A stretch of 64,000 nt of DNA from Trichodelitschia bisporula (taxonomy: Eukaryota). The stretch spans positions 248,001-312,000 of the forward strand of contig ML996704.1 in the NCBI GenBank assembly GCA_010356995.1. Reading direction: 5' to 3'. Positions 35,645 through 42,026 of the stretch are shown one piece after another. The position numbers were made by a program, and so were the translations under genes. Under the pieces are notes generated by a model that saw nothing but the letters and a program-made list of their open reading frames with translations, did no database searches and was not told where the DNA came from. The first letter of the stretch is position 1. Each line of letters opens with the position of its first letter.

Positions 35645-36703
35645 CTAAGTCTCCACAAGCTGGCGCATCAGTCCTTCCTTTTCGATCTCGTACTCAATTT
35701 GCCTCTTCGGTCCTTTGGTCTTCTTGGCCGGCTTGGGTTGTTTCCCATCCGGACGCTTGCGCTTGAGGGTGCCGAGAAGCTTCTTGAGCTTCTCAGCGTC
35801 GGCGTCGCCATCGCTGTCCTCTTCATCCCCGTCCTCGCTGGAGCCTTCTCCACTGTCGGATTCTTCCTCGGTGCTCTCGTCCCCAAGCCAATCCTCCAAA
35901 TCCTCGAGCTCCTCGTCGGATTCGCTATCCGCATCGCTCACGTATTCCACCTCGCCCACGCCCTCTTCGTACTCATGCTCCCCCTCCATTTCTTCCTCCT
36001 CGTCGATGCCCTCGTCCATGTCCTTGTCGCGGACACCCTCGCCGCCACGCTCCAAACCCTTCAGGACCTTCTTCCACACAGACTCCTGGACGTTTAAGGG
36101 GTTGTCTCCGTAGGCTCCGCTCCTTAGACGTTCAATCAGCTCGCGCTCAATGGCCCGTTCCACTCTGGCAGCAGCTTCCGCTTTGCGCTCGCGCGTCTCC
36201 TCTCGTCTGCGAATCTTGGGGGCGAGTTTCGGTACGAGTCTCTCCCCAAGGCGCTCCTCTTCCTTAGCCAGCTTCTTCATACGGATTGAGACTTGGGTCA
36301 GGCGCGTGAGGCGCTGCTTGCACTTGTGCACCAGAAACTTAGGCCAGTAGATGAGGCGTTCGTCCACCATCTCAAGAGCTTTCGCGTAGTTGGAAGGGAG
36401 CTTGACGCGCTCCCACCACCGGTTGGGCATGTGTGAGCGCTCGATGGTCTTCAGGTAAAGGTAGAGCTGGCCGGTGGCGGCGTCGGCACGAATCGTGGCG
36501 TAGCGAGAATTTGCAAGAGGACAGGCCTGCTTGCTGCAGAATCCCGTGACGTTGTACTCATTACGACAGAAGGTTTGGTCTTTACTTGTCCTGCGAAATG
36601 TTAGGAATGCGACGGTGGACAACAAGTCCGGGATTGCATACTTGAGCTTGTAGGAGCAGAATTGCTGGTTGATGATGTTCCACACAATATCGTCGGACGC
36701 CAT
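35645..36703 (-). CDS. MAK16: Mak16, 60S ribosome biogenesis factor
   Basis: MASDDIVWNIINQQFCSYK, FCRNEYNVTGFCSKQACPLANSRYAT, KCKQRLTRL, IERELIERLRSGAYG, acidic tail. One intron near 36592-36640. Confidence 0.96.
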   Translation of the reverse strand: MASDDIVWNIINQQFCSYKLKYAIPDLLSTVAFLTFRRTSKDQTFCRNEYNVTGFCSKQACPLANSRYATIRADAATGQLYLYLKTIERSHMPNRWWERVKLPSNYAKALEMVDERLIYWPKFLVHKCKQRLTRLTQVSIRMKKLAKEEERLGERLVPKLAPKIRRREETRERKAEAAARVERAIERELIERLRSGAYGDNPLNVQESVWKKVLKGLERGGEGVRDKDMDEGIDEEEEMEGEHEYEEGVGEVEYVSDADSESDEELEDLEDWLGDESTEEESDSGEGSSEDGDEEDSDGDADAEKLKKLLGTLKRKRPDGKQPKPAKKTKGPKRQIEYEIEKEGLMRQLVET

Positions 36704-36957
36704 GGTGACTAGCCTAAGGACAAAGGTTGAGCCGACGTAGGTGAAGCTGGGGGGTTTCAAAGGTAACGGTGGTGCTTGGAAGTGAGCAGAAACGAAGTTG
36801 CGCGCGAGGCCGATGAAGCTGAAGCCCCAGAAATTTTTGGGAAATCTTGGCATGCGGGTGGTGATCGGCCCGCTTCGACGCCCGCCAACTACGAGGTCCG
36901 GATTTGGTTCCCCTGTACAGGTTGTTTGCACGGCATGAAGTCAACGCTTCACCGCTC

Positions 36958-38801
36958 ATGCTTCGTTCCTCCTTCTATCGACTGCCGAGGGGTTGGAAAG
37001 GCTTTGGCTCATCCATCACAACTCCTCTCTCTTATTCCCAATGGGTTTTGCGTCCCGCTTTAAGTTACCACTCGAGTGCAGCTGGTCGAGTCTGCCCATC
37101 TGCTGAGGATAGCACAATATACGCCTTGTCAACGGCGCCTGGACGGGCGGCGATTGCAGTAGTTAGGGTCTCGGGACCAGCTTGCGTAGAGGTAGAAACT
37201 GCCATTAGCATTCCGACCGCATGCCAACGTTTATCAGATATACCGAGCACTGTGCCCGGGTAAGCCACTCCCGAAGCCGCGAAGTGCAGCCTTGCGCTCG
37301 CTCCATGACCCTGTAAGGACACCGGATGATGTGCCACTCGACGCCGGATCCCTGGTGTTGTTCTTCCCTTCTCCAAGATCTGTGACTGGAGAGGATGTTC
37401 TCGAATTCCACGTTCATGGTGGACCCGCCATCGTAAAGGCAGTGCTTCAAGCGCTCCCACGCTGCGCCTCCTCAAGCAGTCCGATTCGGTATGCCGAACC
37501 TGGAGAATTCACCCGCCGGGCGTTCCTCAATGGCCGCCTCGATCTGACCCAAGTGGAAGCCTTGGGAGACACGTTGTCCGCAGCGACAGAGCAGCAGAGG
37601 AGGCTTTTTGTCCGCGGCACGGGGAACCAGTTGTCTAAGCGCTACGAAGAATGGCGCCAACTCTTACTGCACGCTCGTGGAGAACTGGAAGCACTAATTG
37701 ATTTTCACGAGGACCAGCACTTTGGCGAGTCTCCTGCTCAGCTCGCGATATCTGTCGCGCATCAGGTGTTGAAGCTTAAGCGGCTCATTGACATACACAT
37801 CCGCAATGCCATGCGAGGAGAGCTACTGCGTAATGGTATTAGTATTGCGCTACTTGGGCCGCCTAATGCTGGAAAAAGCTCGCTTCTGAATCAGATTGCT
37901 GGCCGTGAGGCTGCCATAGTAAGCCAGGAAGCTGGGACAACGAGAGATATCGTTGACATTGGCATTGACCTTGGTGGTTATCTCTGCAAGCTGGCTGACA
38001 TGGCCGGCTTGAGACAGTCAACTGCGCCGCAACAAGGCGATATGGACGCTCTCGGTTCGGTGGAGAAAGAAGGCATCAGACGCGCAAAGCTGCGCGCCTC
38101 AGAGTCGGATGTCGTGGTCGTCATTTTGCCGGTGAAGCGGGACCATAACGGAGAGGCCCGGCTCATGACGGATTCTGAAGTTTTAAGGACCGCGGCAACA
38201 TGCGCTGCCAATGGTAGTGAGCTTGCTGTAGTGATTAACAAGATTGATCAAATGTCGGACAGCGCTCTACTGGAAGTCTGGATATCGGAACTGCATGCCA
38301 AGCTTGCCATTCCTCCGGATCGGATATTCCCCATCTCCTGCAAGTCGGCTGCAGGGGCTTCAGGGGACGACCCTGGACGCGTCCAAGCATTTTTACGCGG
38401 GCTGGTTGGGGTGTTCAGAAGCATGACTTCAGCTGTCGACGTTGATTCCCAGGCGGACCTGGCGATCCCTGGTATCCCGGCACAAAGCGTATCGAACACC
38501 TTGCTCCAGGAATCTCTCGGAGCCAGCGAGAGACATCGGTTACTCCTCCAAGAATGTATGATACATTTGGAATCCTTCCTTGAGCAGGTTGAAACTGAAG
38601 TCCATGAAGAAGGAGAGCCCGATATCGTTGTTGCGGCGGAATGCTTGCGAGCCGCAGCGGATTGTCTCGCAAGAATCACCGGTCGTGGGACATCGGGCGA
38701 CGTAGAGGAGGTTCTCGGCGTCGTTTTTGAAAAGTTGGTAAGCACTGCCTCGCGCCCGGCGTTGTGAACTAACGCCTCCCAGGTTCTGCGTCGGAAAATA
38801 A
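36958..38801 (+). CDS. MSS1: Mitochondrial tRNA modification GTPase (MnmE/TrmE/GTPBP3)
   Basis: Basic presequence, TIYALSTAPGRAAIAVVRVSG, EPGEFTRRAFLNGRLDLTQVEAL, GPPNAGKSS, GTTRD, NKID; terminal exon FCVGK* after the last intron. Confidence 0.95.
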
Positions 38802-38991
38802 ATAGGCCAACAAACAGAAAAATCAAGCATTGATGTGATAGTACATGATATCTCCTTTTGCGCCTTCTCGCTATGTAGAAATCGATGCCCGTCCTTCTAC
38901 TCGTACATGTCCGCAGCCCGTGCGGTCGGTATGGACGGAAGCCCGTCATGCCAACAATGAAAACAAAATTCCACCCAAGTATGTACAAGCG

Positions 38992-39015
38992 CTAGTTGTA
39001 TCCGCCTCTTCCCAT
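38992..39015 (-). CDS. sORF 3, heptapeptide MGRGGYN
   Basis: ATG GGA AGA GGC GGA TAC AAC TAG. Confidence 0.75.
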   Translation of the reverse strand: MGRGGYN

Positions 39016-39078
39016 CCGACAGATGTTGGTGTCTGGCTCTCGGCCTGCGTAGTGCGCGGACTGGTGCTTTCCTCCAAT

Positions 39079-39102
39079 CTAATTGTAGCCACCACGGCCC
39101 AT
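39079..39102 (-). CDS. sORF 2, heptapeptide MGRGGYN
   Basis: ATG GGC CGT GGT GGC TAC AAT TAG. Confidence 0.75.
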   Translation of the reverse strand: MGRGGYN

Positions 39103-39188
39103 GTCGCCGAAGTGGAAGGTTTCAAGTGTGTTTATCCGATGGCGAAAGGAAAAGCAGTGCTTGGTAAGTTGAGAAGACGTGATCCGGA

Positions 39189-39212
39189 TCAGTTGTATCC
39201 GCCGCGGCCCAT
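39189..39212 (-). CDS. sORF 1, heptapeptide MGRGGYN
   Basis: ATG GGC CGC GGC GGA TAC AAC TGA; first minus-strand ATG after an ATG-free stretch from 39600. Confidence 0.75.
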   Translation of the reverse strand: MGRGGYN

Positions 39213-39608
39213 GGAGAATTGAAACAATTGGCTGAACAGAGGAAAGCAGAGGTCTGGGGAAGATGTGGAAGACGGCGGAATTGGAGACGGTAAGAAGGCG
39301 CAGGCTCAGAATTTGAAGTTTTCGGAGATGAAACCGGTGGGAAAGAGAGATAGTTCAACTGGAGGACAGGAAGAAATGGCGACGACAATGGGAGAGGAGA
39401 GGAAAAGTGATAAAGTGAGAAGCTGAAGGGAAAAGGAGATAAAGCTCGACGGTTTATGACTGAGGATTTTACCCTGCGAGGAAATGACTAGAACCCGTGC
39501 AGGTGTTCGAAATCGGTGCCTTTAGGAGTTGACGAAAGGTAAAAGACTGGAAATCTGCCAAATGAATTGCTTGTGGGCCGAATTCGCTGCCTAAAGAATC
39601 CATTATAT
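39213..39608 (-). promoter_or_regulatory. Pyrimidine-rich core promoter / 5' leader of the MGRGGYN transcript
   Basis: Minus strand is strongly C/T-rich (tctccttttcccttcagcttctcactttatcacttttcctctcctctccc) with no ATG between 39600 and 39213. Candidate TATAA (~39604-39608) and CATAAA (39453-39458). Confidence 0.55.
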
Positions 39609-40112
39609 GATCGCGAGGCCGCACCATATATGCAGTATTTTGGCCCCAAGTCCGGAGAGTCATCGCGGTGACCTCCAGCTAGGCAACGAGGAGGGAATGG
39701 CAACAGCCCCAGGGCCGCAGCACCTCGTTGCCAAAAACTGTCTCCGCACCATTATGGTGACAGATTGGCGGACAGGACGTGAAGATCTAAACATGGGCCG
39801 GGCCGAACACCACACAGCCTCCCACGAAGCACCAGCCACTTTTCTGCCCCAAAAAGTGGCCACGAACTGTTGTGGTCGGCGGCGAGTCATACATCACGAT
39901 TCACACGGAGCGACCGCACTGGCCGGTGGGGGAAGAAATTATCATGTCAGCACGCCAACGGAACGCAGTCATATTACTATGTACGTCCAGCCTGTCCGGA
40001 CTTGCCCGTGCTACCGTCCGGACGCTGCTGACACAACACTGGCCGCAGCGGATAATTCGAGAAGTGGCTGTCGATCTGATCCGAAATGTGCGGGGAGAAT
40101 AGACGCAGATTG

Positions 40113-40234
40113 TGTGGAGTGTGTGGAATATTCCCTGAATGCGGCTCCCAGTTTGTAAGACGTTTATAAGACGTTTAAACTGCTAATGGAGATAATGTGG
40201 AGTGTGTGGAATGTTCCGCTCAATGCGGCTCCCA
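40113..40234. repeat. Imperfect ~38-bp direct repeat (40113-40150, 40196-40234) with an internal 11-bp tandem duplication
   Basis: tgtggagtgtgtggaatattccctgaatgcggctccca vs tgtggagtgtgtggaatgttccgctcaatgcggctccca; taagacgttta twice at 40156-40177. Confidence 0.75.
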
Positions 40235-40813
40235 CTTCGTTACGTACCGTAAGCCGTTTAAGGTGTAGCACCGGAAGAGGCGGTGCCATGGCGGCCCTGT
40301 AGGGCTGATCAATGGTCGTCGTGTGGCTGATAAATCCACCGTCGCTGATGCGCTCATGCGGTAGAACTAGGCATACGAAGCTACGGAAGATACTATGTAC
40401 TCCCAAATCTGTAATTGCGTCCCCATGGCTCTCTCTCTTTACGCCAGTATGCGGCCTCGGGCGATACTCTGCCACCCGGGTCGGCAGTGCTGTCATTCCG
40501 AGCACCAATATCCGTGCATTTGGATTTCATATTGCTTATGGGGCACTTGGATTATGCTTCAAAATCTCTTAGAAAATGGATGTGATTCACTGTGAGTTAA
40601 AATAGAAATGGCCGTTAACCGCCCCGATCCCAGTGCTTTTCTACCATTCTGGCCCATGTGACAGGTGGCAAGGACTGGGCGATCGTGCTAATTGAGGTAA
40701 ACCCCATTACCCGTTTGTAGCAGTCAACTTCCGCTGGATGCTATTGTGCGAGCAACCTCCAACTACAGTAAATGGGCTGGTTGATGATTGGCAGACCACC
40801 GCCCCGAAATGGA

Positions 40814-42026
40814 TTAAGCACTGTAAGAGCTGATGTAGTACTGGCTGCAATCAGCTTTGTTACGCCTGGCAATGTCACTTACAGTCAATGCTGACTCTTC
40901 CTCATCGCGCTCGCTCGGTAGGTAGACGTAGAGAATGAGGGCGTGTTCGTGGCAGAAACCTTCTCCGTCAGCATCAGATATCCAGGAAGCGGAGAATCTA
41001 ACAAGCAATGACGCGACCTCCAAGCCGACCAACCGACATGACCTTGCCCCAATCCTTCCCATCGAGTCGCACCTTTGCCCACCCCTCCTCACTTTGACCG
41101 TCTGGCCCACCAAGCTGCTTCATTCTCGTGCTCGGATGCTGTTGAATCTCCTCCATTCCGCCTTCGAGATGCGACGGATCAAGCTCCGGATTATCTAGCC
41201 CAGTCCATAGGCTGGCCATCTTCATCGCGTCAGTCTTGATGCCTAGCCGTAAGCAACCGTGCATGTTGGCCGCCATCTCCAGCCTCGGGCCGATAGCGCT
41301 TAAGCCAGCCGTCACGGATCGGGACTCGAGCGCGACCTTGGTGAAGCGGTCCGAAATGCTCTTGAGCTGCATCAGGGGTGGTAGAATAATGTGCACATCT
41401 GGATCGCGACAGCGCGGCTCGTGTATGCCCTCTACTTTAGACGGGCTGAGCACCCGGACCGGGACATCCTGTGTGATGGTGGTCTCACGCTCCCGCGACA
41501 AGCCGATGCCAATCCCGCCGTCGTCGTCCTCACTAGCCGACTGGCGTGCGTTGCCGATGGAGTTGCGTACGATGGTGATAGAAAGCAGCGGGATGTTGTC
41601 CTTTTTCGTCAGTCGGATCGAGGCCGCAGTAGCTTGCAGTGCCGATTTTAGCGCCTGATGCAGCGGGCCCAGTGGTACTTCAAGGTTGATTACATTCTCG
41701 GCCGCCGACTGGATGGTGTAGCCTTCGAAAATGGCGTCCTGGGCAATTAGCTTGCCGCATGACGATGGGGGCAACGTACGATGGCGAGCACCCTACGCTG
41801 TTAGCAGTTCCACGAAGTCTGGCTCTACTGCATACGCCCAAACCTGAGTCCCTTGTTCGGGAATGATAGTAAAGCGGACATCATTCTCGTTCAGCCGCAC
41901 CCACGCCACGGGACCCAGCGAAGTGAGTGATGCGACGAATTCTTAAGATATTAGCGCAGCCTTCAGAGATGATGATTGCTTACTAGTGAACGTGGTGATA
42001 TTTTGTATCTGAGCCTTGAAGCGCAT
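40814..42026 (-). CDS. HUS1: Hus1, 9-1-1 checkpoint clamp subunit
   Basis: MRFKAQIQNITTFT, IIPEQGTQVW, YTIQSAAENVINLEV, IRLTKKDNIPLLS, ITQDVPVRVL, DVHIILPPL, CHEHALILYVYL, QYYISSYSA*. Multiple introns including a micro-exon near 41780. Confidence 0.92.

Follow-up and report, generated by a model that had tools for sequence, protein, structure and literature searches.

Are three tandem reading frames of seven codons each, all specifying the peptide M-G-R-G-G-Y-N, a gene, and if so, what might such a product do? The frames lie on the minus strand of the window, by which we mean the whole 64,000-nt stretch of Trichodelitschia bisporula DNA that was analysed, where they span 221 nt. A sequence-only reading had proposed that they form a polycistronic micropeptide gene. 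All three were found exactly where that reading had placed them (Table 1), and a degenerate pattern for MGRGGYN plus stop matches the entire 64 kb at these three sites and no others; 100 dinucleotide shuffles of the window produced no match to it. The three 24-nt ORFs differ pairwise by 6, 5 and 6 nucleotides, and each difference is silent, as had been claimed, falling at a third codon position, in the switch between CGC or CGT and AGA for arginine, or inside the stop codon. For the six sense codons, 14 of 54 possible single changes are synonymous. The two spacers are indeed unrelated to each other (local alignment score 6, versus 6.9 on average and 12 at most for shuffled sequence), and a repeat search of the locus found the 22-nt ORF body, at 73-86% identity, to be the sole repeated unit.

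Table 1. Features of the micro-ORF locus and its convergent neighbor, in window coordinates.
Feature	Coordinates	Strand	Remarks
Micro-ORF 1	39189..39212	-	M-G-R-G-G-Y-N-stop (TGA); first ATG past the 388-nt ATG-free leader
Micro-ORF 2	39079..39102	-	M-G-R-G-G-Y-N-stop (TAG); relative to ORF 1, four synonymous changes plus two in the stop codon
Micro-ORF 3	38992..39015	-	M-G-R-G-G-Y-N-stop (TAG); Arg codon AGA
Leader	39213..39600	-	ATG-free, C+T-rich, G-poor (7-20% G per 60-nt bin); probable promoter-proximal region
Spacer 1	39103..39188	-	86 nt, without ATG, unlike spacer 2
Spacer 2	39016..39078	-	63 nt, without ATG
Tail	38802..38991	-	190 nt, ORF 3 stop to convergent MSS1 stop; presumed 3' untranslated end
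MSS1	36958..38801	+	MnmE-type mitochondrial tRNA-modification GTPase; convergent neighbor, stop ends at 38801
MSS1 introns	37190-37235, 38734-38782	+	optional 54-nt intron at 38556-38609
RNA-derived coverage (runs X1 and X2)	38783..39980	.	no joint or difference

Minus-strand ATGs between 39700 and 38992 occur at 39663, 39627, 39603, 39212, 39102 and 39015; therefore the assertion that the three ORF starts are the only ones from 39600 to 38992 stands. TATA-like strings, noted by eye only, lie directly upstream of the leader at about 39603-39630. It had also been stated that no long ORF follows the micro-ORFs and that the locus instead meets the 3' end of MSS1, and this too proved accurate. The one sense ORF beyond them, 233 codons from 38949 to 38248, runs antisense through MSS1 exons, and the tail likely overlaps the MSS1 3' untranslated region. 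Pfam searches of the window neighbors returned MMR_HSR1/MnmE_helical, Hus1 and Mak16 only, corresponding to the genes MSS1, HUS1 and MAK16. A search of positions 38000-41000 against Rfam, at E values up to 1, gave no match; the locus is not accounted for by any known RNA family, snoRNA or riboswitch.

Metagenome contigs were scanned with a degenerate codon pattern for the motif, and 86 loci were recovered. Every match has the peptide by design of the pattern; independent evidence comes from clustering and synteny, from the scarcity of ATG, and from the intron and variant forms described below. Two or three exact matches share one strand in 28 of the 86 loci, and 79 contain at least one GRGGYN-stop core, with none on the opposite strand. 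As a control, 596 Gb of prokaryote genome sequence was scanned and gave 12 loci, every one single and none clustered, and these chance matches are without the depletion of ATG and G in leaders and spacers that is documented below. The recurrence of the motif is not chance, because the metagenomes yield clustered and syntenic lineages, whereas prokaryotes yield only unclustered single matches.

Grouping of loci by near-identity gave 54 groups, the window counted as one, and blastn of the window against all other groups found no match of 60 nt or more. At least two cores are present in 26 of the 54 groups and a convergent MSS1 in 32; one or the other is present in 37. The clustered copies that the sequence-only reading expected in other genomes are thus present across distinct lineages: 36 lineages plus the window have two to five motif copies on one strand, a convergent MSS1, or both. 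In 34 of the 37 groups at least two motifs are contiguous, and the remaining three (L008, L041 and L042) have an intron-split second copy. Synteny had been suggested with both MSS1 and HUS1. The former was borne out, with MSS1 convergent in 43 of 86 metagenome loci, but HUS1 was found within 1500 nt upstream in none of the 86. Among the 26 multi-copy groups, 21 have the convergent MSS1, and in the other five the downstream sequence extends no further than 709 nt. Given that dozens of distant fungi share this arrangement, the three-ORF locus very likely represents a genuine micropeptide gene overlooked by standard annotation, and we lean toward its conservation across distant ascomycete fungi of the Pezizomycotina type.

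Across 69 core copies from 37 lineages, all glycine codons are used, arginine is encoded by CGN or AGA, and third positions vary freely. The first glycine is GGT in 34 copies, GGC in 20, GGA in 13 and GGG in 2; arginine is CGC in 37, CGA in 15, CGT in 14 and AGA in 3; the stop codon is TAA in 44, TAG in 16 and TGA in 9. ATG immediately precedes the core in 60 of the 69 copies, extra residues stand between Met and Gly in nine, and a purine follows the stop in 56. The flanks of these copies are unalignable, with no conserved base. Motifs with at most one mismatch number 89 on the sense strand versus 0 on the antisense strand. Free third-position variation, unalignable flanks and this strand asymmetry together show, as far as sequence comparison reaches, that selection acts at the level of the peptide, as originally supposed.

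The sequence between and ahead of the motif copies carries an unusually clean evolutionary signature. The 37 leaders, taken up to 150 nt, contain 5 ATG versus 41.6 expected from shuffles, together with 173 CAT; the 33 spacers contain 1 ATG versus 23.6 expected, together with 121 CAT. Pooled, six ATG are seen where about 65 would be expected, and G content in these relatives is about 10% in leaders and spacers alike. Conservation at the codon level and the depletion of ATG suggest that these ORFs are translated.

Several relatives encode the motif in other ways. In six loci, a sense-strand GT..AG intron of 54-61 nt interrupts the core at the same place, after 8 nt, with a branch-like CTRAY 15-16 nt from the 3' site, and its removal restores the motif in frame; the same intron-in-motif pattern has no match on the antisense strand of the loci. 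The split copies of L008 and L041 were found by regular expression, and that of L042 by eye in an alignment, its motif reading GRGGHN. Relatives also fuse motif copies into ORFs of 19-62 residues; at loci adjacent to MSS1 such ORFs have 19-61 residues, two motifs and an acidic tail, and fused relatives carry two or three RGG units 20-35 residues apart. Annotated relatives with the motif are 37-80 residues long, a few of them labelled hypothetical protein. Short fungal proteins beginning MGRGGY had been suggested to be possible mis-models of such loci. Proteins of this kind are indeed annotated in Thermoascus crustaceus and Aspergillus wentii, but their metagenome counterparts are real fused forms beside MSS1 rather than obvious mis-models, a verdict that concerns the metagenome loci. 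Unrelated longer proteins contain from 9 to about 20 GRGGYN repeats, the units often flanked by Asp or Asn.

Contigs from runs X1 and X2 are RNA-derived, since they skip four GT..AG introns that are retained by DNA run X3. They are collinear with the genome across the whole covered stretch, all three micro-ORFs included, and so provide none of the spliced reads that were named at the outset as grounds for rejecting separate cistrons. Part of this coverage could be plus-strand RNA, because the contigs are continuous with MSS1 and also hold a plus-strand intron, 39981-40048, just upstream of the leader. A minus-strand RNA, with its own ends, is presumed to exist in this organism.

The explanation we favor, with moderate confidence, is a small conserved fungal gene in which all three ORFs are genuine cistrons, translated by scanning and re-initiation. 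A short minus-strand RNA would start within the leader, and a scanning 40S subunit would reach the ORF 1 start first because the leader is G-poor and ATG-free. After seven codons, the 40S subunit would stay on the RNA and re-initiate at ORF 2 and ORF 3 by way of the ATG-free spacers, with a possible contribution from leaky scanning past weak start contexts, so that each pass might yield up to three copies of M-GRGGYN. The Met before Gly would probably be removed, leaving GRGGYN, and the selected unit would be this hexapeptide itself, acting in trans. Our best guess at a target is a reader of Arg-Gly-Gly-Tyr short linear motifs, which a free, single-unit motif could occupy. The RNA would end against the convergent 3' end of MSS1, a pairing that is kept in relatives. 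Counting against this explanation, a free hexapeptide in the cytosol is expected to have a short life.

The main rival, which we consider unlikely yet deserving of serious attention, is that the micro-ORFs are cis-acting upstream ORFs with a conserved peptide, in which nascent GRGGYN, or its translation and termination, gates downstream re-initiation or the lifetime of the RNA. The regulated thing would be the next small ORF, if there is one; in the window, it may be how stable an RNA is that extends, in antisense, into the MSS1 3' end. As in conserved-peptide uORFs generally, the peptide rather than the nucleotides is conserved in the 69 copies of 37 lineages, and the micro-ORFs are always 5'-most, behind an ATG-free leader. 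The role fits because the same micro-ORF precedes other small ORFs elsewhere. In nine lineages, the next ATG, 35-152 nt downstream, opens a conserved basic ORF of 34-48 residues; in L012 a single copy stands ahead of a Cys/His ORF, and in L028/L085 ahead of a related ORF, with a gap of 57-77 nt and MSS1 not seen alongside. The preference for a purine after the stop and the frequency of the convergent MSS1 in multi-copy groups, both given above, are likewise listed in its favor. Against these, the window and several three-copy relatives (e.g. L007, L032 and L053) lack any conserved ORF before MSS1. No counterpart of the L012 Cys/His ORF was found in the window, and a basic stretch of the 233-codon antisense ORF was rejected as a homolog of the basic small ORF (best profile E values in the window, 2.8-6.8). 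The original statement that these are not uORFs of a conventional gene applies to the window and to the relatives nearest to it in architecture, in which the convergent MSS1 begins within a few hundred bases; it is qualified by other loci, in which small ORFs do follow. A gate, moreover, has no need of several identical tandem copies. Nor is placement at a stop codon required, because the motif is kept inside longer ORFs, with residues before the stop, and as repeats in unrelated proteins.

It is very improbable that the locus is an untranslated DNA- or RNA-level element, such as a protein-binding site in a long MSS1 3' region: its constant place beside the MSS1 3' end would suit such an element, and the coverage contigs are compatible with RNA of either strand, but variation is limited to third codon positions and the CGN/AGA switch while ATG and stop are conserved, the depletion of ATG and G is confined to the micro-ORF strand, the intron preserves the reading frame, and the three copies read on the plus strand give differing peptides, one of them in another frame (ORF 38845-39222). 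Equally hard to credit is a longer, spliced protein gene to which the segments would belong as exons or fragments, with the in-frame stops removed, for although one lineage has an intron inside a motif copy and others have fused multi-motif ORFs, the RNA-derived contigs of two runs cross the locus without a joint, there are no donor/acceptor pairs around the stops, and 60 of the 69 copies keep their own ATG and stop.

The locus was also compared with known systems. The arthropod gene tal/pri/mlpt (tarsal-less, polished rice or mille-pattes) has several tandem tiny ORFs for one short motif on a short RNA without a long ORF, a layout that the window locus may share; it was long thought non-coding and, like the window locus, is missed by gene finders. 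Its ORFs are of 11-32 codons, in animals, with translation and pathway demonstrated, whereas those described here are of 7 codons, in fungi, and known from sequence; the fungal copies, unlike those of tal/pri/mlpt, are sometimes fused, intron-split or joined by other small ORFs. Because MGRGGYN is unrelated to the heptapeptide of that family, the window locus is an analog of tal/pri/mlpt and not a member. In fungi, arg-2/CPA1 has a uORF for the arginine attenuator peptide, and mammalian S-adenosylmethionine decarboxylase mRNA has a hexapeptide uORF similar in size to the micro-ORFs; what they share with the micro-ORFs is a very short 5' ORF with conserved amino-acid sequence. Each of those uORFs, however, is a single copy that precedes a main ORF and works in cis, at termination, unlike the two to five copies here, with no main ORF in the window and with the motif occurring also away from the stop.

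Two other kinds of system resemble the locus in part. MccA, the microcin C precursor of enterobacteria, is a functional seven-codon gene whose peptide ends in Asn, as here, but it belongs to bacteria and shares an operon with its modifying enzymes; the neighbors here are MSS1, HUS1 and MAK16, and Pfam detected no ThiF/MoeB-type adenylating enzyme among the window neighbors. Kex2-processed repeat proteins and ustiloxin-type RiPP precursors place many copies of a short core at one fungal locus, yet within a single long ORF that begins with a signal peptide and is cleaved at dibasic sites. In the window, start and stop codons are separate for each copy, KR flanks are absent, and seven residues leave no room for a signal peptide.

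The RGG/RG motifs of RNA-binding proteins have the string G-R-G-G-Y-N and a Gly-rich Arg/Tyr context in common with the micro-ORF product. An RGG/RG motif is usually defined by two or three closely spaced units (di- or tri-RGG), and each cistron here has one RGG. The yeast Hrp1 PY-NLS, as listed in PMC8140498, contains the hexapeptide GRGGYN, there as part of a 27-residue signal within a large protein, whereas here it is the whole product. By analogy with such motifs, mimicry of an RGG-Tyr motif might be the mode of action, the case being one of resemblance.

A bolder claim, which we offer tentatively and regard as rather doubtful, is that GRGGYN is a ribosome-made hexapeptide effector, for which a seven-codon ORF and Met removal would constitute the whole biosynthesis, with no precursor or protease. 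It would be kept across distant classes of filamentous ascomycetes and encoded interchangeably by tandem re-initiated micro-ORFs, fused peptides of two or three motifs, an intron-split copy, and possibly multi-repeat precursors. Were this so, eukaryotes would have no smaller conserved protein-coding gene known, and fungi would have a new class of peptide signals or regulators. The peptide might cap Arg/Tyr-driven interactions as a monovalent unit or bind a conserved RGG reader as its ligand, and its expression would be coupled to MSS1 by convergent transcription.

If our preferred reading of translated, re-initiated cistrons holds, fungi would gain their first described polycistronic micropeptide gene, the 7-codon ORFs would rank with the shortest conserved coding sequences of any eukaryote, and the locus would be a natural model of eukaryotic re-initiation with several cistrons per RNA. 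ORF-length thresholds hide the locus, and annotation has only the fused forms, as hypothetical proteins; annotated small proteins with the motif exist in tractable species, Aspergillus wentii and Thermoascus crustaceus. Since the convergent pairing with MSS1 is fixed, one may ask whether the locus is coupled in antisense to this gene of mitochondrial tRNA modification. A scan by degenerate codon pattern, filtered by clustering and synteny, is reusable for other micro-ORF genes.

The string MGRGGYN had no occurrence that we found in the literature. Among the matches listed for GRGGYN or RGGYN there is no title on a fungal micro-ORF, nor did keyword searches list any such work, and we found no description in print; a bioRxiv match to GRGGYN is an artefact of a C-terminal -Y-NH2.

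Some further candidates for function were set aside. N-myristoylation was not retained as the conserved function, given the residues that stand between Met and Gly in nine of 69 copies, nor were N-glycosylation sequons, since the stop follows the Asn directly. A link between the Gly and Arg codons and MnmE-modified tRNAs was dropped as well: GGT, GGC and CGN are the dominant codons, and MSS1 acts in mitochondria. The sole contig from run X5 (organism B) is 155 nt long, matches 38826-38980 exactly and has a depth of 3.7, too little to call that organism a relative. For the motif-bearing proteins, Pfam returned only MBOAT_2, in a Drosera protein, and a sub-threshold GRP match. An atlas look-up with P0129 gave no usable match, one with P0122 gave a single ascomycete cluster (score 0.80, a lead only), and a search with P0130 returned six proteins.

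The degenerate MGRGGYN-stop pattern matches the 64-kb window exactly three times, at micro-ORFs 1 to 3 (see table), and none of 100 dinucleotide-preserving shuffles of the window contained any match. Pairwise nucleotide differences among the three number 6, 5 and 6 and are confined to third codon positions, the two-base switch from CGC/CGT to AGA in the Arg codon, or the stop codon; of the 54 single changes that the sense codons allow, just 14 are silent. The 22-nt ORF body was the only repeated part found by a repeat search at the locus. The sequence-only reading had placed the three ORFs, called all their codon differences synonymous and described the 86- and 63-nt spacers as unrelated; minus-strand reading and the pattern matches bear this out, and the spacers are no more similar to each other than shuffled sequence would be. 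It had also reported no other minus-strand ATG from 39600 and no long ORF ahead of MSS1, the convergent plus-strand gene for an MnmE-type mitochondrial tRNA-modification GTPase. The closest upstream minus-strand ATG is indeed at 39603, leaving a 388-nt leader without ATG whose 60-nt bins contain as little as 7-20% G, and the sole sense ORF after the micro-ORFs, 233 codons long, mirrors MSS1 exons on the opposite strand. In an MSS1 model rebuilt using introns supported by RNA contigs, 38801 is the last base of the stop codon, which leaves 190 nt up to the stop of micro-ORF 3. All factual statements of that reading were thus confirmed, and its interpretation as a multi-copy micropeptide gene is supported.

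Features of the window and of metagenome-contig loci (L numbers)
Feature	Coordinates	Strand	Evidence or remarks
Micro-ORF 1, M-G-R-G-G-Y-N-stop, 24 nt	39212-39189	minus	minus-strand reading
Micro-ORF 2, M-G-R-G-G-Y-N-stop, 24 nt	39102-39079	minus	minus-strand reading
Micro-ORF 3, M-G-R-G-G-Y-N-stop, 24 nt	39015-38992	minus	minus-strand reading
GT..AG intron	37190-37235	plus	skipped in RNA contigs of runs X1/X2 over 37000-40500
Optional 54-nt in-frame intron in MSS1 coding region	38556-38609	plus	X2 only; spliced and unspliced forms
GT..AG intron	38734-38782	plus	skipped in X1/X2 RNA contigs over 37000-40500
Intron GTACGT..CTGAC..CAG	39981-40048	plus	skipped in X1/X2 contigs
MAK16 (Ribosomal_L28e and Mak16 domains)	35648-36853	minus	Pfam
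HUS1, upstream neighbour of micro-ORFs	41001-41792	minus	Pfam
Second-type locus: single micro-ORF and a downstream small ORF (49 residues, Cys/His-rich)	L012:1274-1524	minus	
Basic small ORF, third cistron after two micro-ORFs	L009:1749-1853		also L040, L055, L079, L003, L010, L067, L076, L050

Relatives were found by scanning metagenome contigs with the same degenerate pattern. The scan returned 86 loci, 28 of them with two or three exact same-strand matches within a few hundred bases; one or more GRGGYN-stop cores occur in 79, never on the opposite strand. A control scan of 596 Gb of prokaryote genomes with the identical pattern gave 12 loci, each with a single match. The 79 core-bearing loci plus the window form 54 near-identical groups, and the window has no blastn match of at least 60 nt to any other group. 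Two or more cores occur in 26 groups, a convergent downstream C-terminal part of MSS1 in 32, and either in 37. Of the 86 loci, 43 have MSS1, which lies 255-1389 nt past the last copy and shows 39-63% identity to the window protein (spans of at least 75 residues); it is present in 21 of the 26 multi-copy groups, the remaining five having no more than 709 nt of downstream sequence. Clustering and synteny with MSS1, proposed earlier as checks, therefore hold on metagenome contigs, but the synteny with HUS1 proposed alongside them does not, no HUS1 being found within the 1500-nt flanks of the 86 loci. Named MSS1 relatives of the window are from Dothideomycetes, at about 48-57% identity in a search whose length window excluded full-length proteins, while annotated small proteins with the motif occur in Thermoascus crustaceus and Aspergillus wentii, which we take to be Eurotiomycetes; from this distribution, the locus is old.

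Codon usage was tabulated for 69 copies from 37 groups. All four Gly codons are used, as are CGC, CGA, CGT and AGA for Arg; Tyr is TAC in 65 and TAT in 4, Asn is AAC in 60 and AAT in 9, and the stop is TAA in 44, TAG in 16 and TGA in 9. The core follows ATG immediately in 60 of the 69, and no conserved bases were found in the flanks. Because the search pattern fixed the peptide, the codon table alone is circular. Independent of the pattern are the convergent MSS1 synteny, a depletion of ATG, a sense-strand intron, natural variants of the core, and the clustering and strict one-strandedness of the motif, which at up to one mismatch occurs 89 times in sense and never in antisense. Leaders (n = 37, up to 150 nt) contain 5 ATG versus 41.6 expected from shuffles, and 173 CAT; spacers (n = 33) contain 1 ATG versus 23.6 expected, and 121 CAT; leaders and spacers alike have roughly 10% G. 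Stretches of 230-670 nt without ATG are common at the metagenome loci, and the corresponding stretches at the prokaryote chance matches run to 4-128 nt, with 17-35% G. Six loci (L008, L020, L021, L063, L041, L083) carry a 54-61-nt intron at an identical site within the core. Its donor is of GTAAGT or GTACGT type, a branch-like site lies 15-16 nt from the acceptor, and excising the intron restores G-R-G-G-Y-N in frame; no such intron was found on the antisense strand, and two further loci (L042, L019) look similar by eye with a different donor.

Natural variants of the core include GRDGYN, DRGGYN and GRGDYN, and one copy is interrupted by a stop. Some copies have an N-terminal extension of 1-13 residues, mostly acidic or polar, and the intron-bearing lineage adds 3-4 residues after Asn. 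Beside MSS1, two copies may be fused in a single ORF of 19-61 residues (the L018, L022, L025, L078 and L043 groups; L044, L056, L068), with Met retained before the second motif and usually an acidic tail after it. In nine lineages a conserved basic ORF of 34-48 residues starts at the first ATG beyond the second micro-ORF, at a distance of 35-152 nt; it has an Arg/Lys-rich core ending in E-R-W-R and synonymous variation of its own, matches nothing in Pfam and is missing from the window. Searched against 1.84 billion proteins, a profile of the fused forms hit 30 cluster representatives (E up to 0.001). Some of these are longer proteins (P0129, P0130, P0127) in which GRGGYN is repeated 9 to about 20 times, frequently with Asp or Met before the unit and x-Pro after it. 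One is from Hypoxylon sp.; in another, from the plant Drosera rotundifolia, the units lie behind an MBOAT_2 domain in what may be a chimeric model.

The micro-ORFs could instead be regulatory uORFs whose effect depends on the peptide, a serious alternative that we nevertheless consider rather unlikely. It accounts for their 5'-most position, perhaps for the constant pairing with MSS1, via control of antisense RNA, and for the small ORFs downstream in other loci. No MSS1 was detected next to the micro-ORF at loci of a second type, of which L028 and L085 offer less than 450 nt of downstream sequence. Each of these loci (L012 and L028/L085) has one MGRGGYN ORF after a 254-365-nt leader without ATG, and another small ORF begins 57-77 nt beyond it, that of L028/L085 having 36 residues and partly resembling that of L012. 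The uORF reading leaves unexplained why identical copies stand in tandem, why some loci have nothing downstream, and why motifs occur internally or fused. At L047:1-728 (minus strand), a possible instance of uORF use ahead of a conventional gene, a single micro-ORF follows 270 nt of ATG-free leader and stands 246 nt before an ORF without Pfam match, which the contig end cuts off after 152 or more residues. The reading as an untranslated DNA or RNA element conflicts with where in the codons the copies vary, with ATG being depleted on one strand only, and with an intron that preserves the reading frame.

That the micro-ORFs are exons of a longer protein is contradicted by RNA. Five public runs contain the window stretch, none recorded as RNA. 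Four GT..AG introns are missing from contigs of X1 and X2, while those of DNA run X3 are collinear over 37000-40500 with introns retained, so X1 and X2 derive from RNA. Their contigs span 38783-39980 with no joints and no differences, rather than joining the segments by splicing as the exon reading expects; the micro-ORF locus is therefore transcribed, on one or other strand, without splicing into a longer message. Assembled contigs carry no strand, end or expression-level information and all four introns are plus-strand introns, so the RNA over the micro-ORFs could be of either strand; the intron nearest HUS1 places plus-strand RNA just upstream of the leader.

With its ATG-free leader, seven-codon ORFs and ATG-free spacers, the micropeptide locus reads as a eukaryotic polycistron from which each pass would yield as many as three copies of one peptide. 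These sequence features, and the leader's lack of structure, suit cap-dependent scanning. After a short uORF, as in yeast GCN4, 40S subunits can be retained and re-initiate; after the seven-codon first ORF they would likewise stay bound and do so, and the spacers, 11-209 nt across loci, would conduct them to the next start. The motif is kept whether or not it has an N-terminal extension or residues after Asn, and also in fusions and in unrelated repeat proteins, which suggests placing function in a GRGGYN peptide acting in trans rather than in terminating on that peptide. Initiator Met before Gly is normally removed, which would yield exactly GRGGYN. The PY-NLS of yeast Hrp1 contains the identical hexapeptide, according to a passage in PMC8140498. 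Such resemblance to RGG-Tyr motifs is the only lead to a target, and a role drawn from it is a guess.

The exact string MGRGGYN is absent from the searchable open literature (subscription-only papers and supplements being outside its scope); GRGGYN and RGGYN return only unrelated items there, judged mostly by title, and keyword searches gave no fungal micro-ORF papers among the matches listed. Neither Pfam nor Rfam has a match for the locus. The insect tal/pri gene is closest by function, but the peptide fails the tal/pri family motif, which makes the locus an analogue in another kingdom.

Upstream of the leader, a 48-codon ORF with four Cys (39944-40158, plus strand) crosses the junction of the 39981-40048 intron within a spliced RNA region at 39923-40240; no counterpart was found in the 86 loci. 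A direct repeat of about 50 nt, with 86-89% identity, lies at 40107-40156 and 40190-40240, and an X1 RNA contig stops within its second copy, probably because the assembly broke there rather than because the RNA ends. The only contig of the region in run X5, which carries the label of a different organism, is 155 nt long, at depth 3.7, and identical to 38826-38980; it may have been carried over between libraries or come from a conserved piece.
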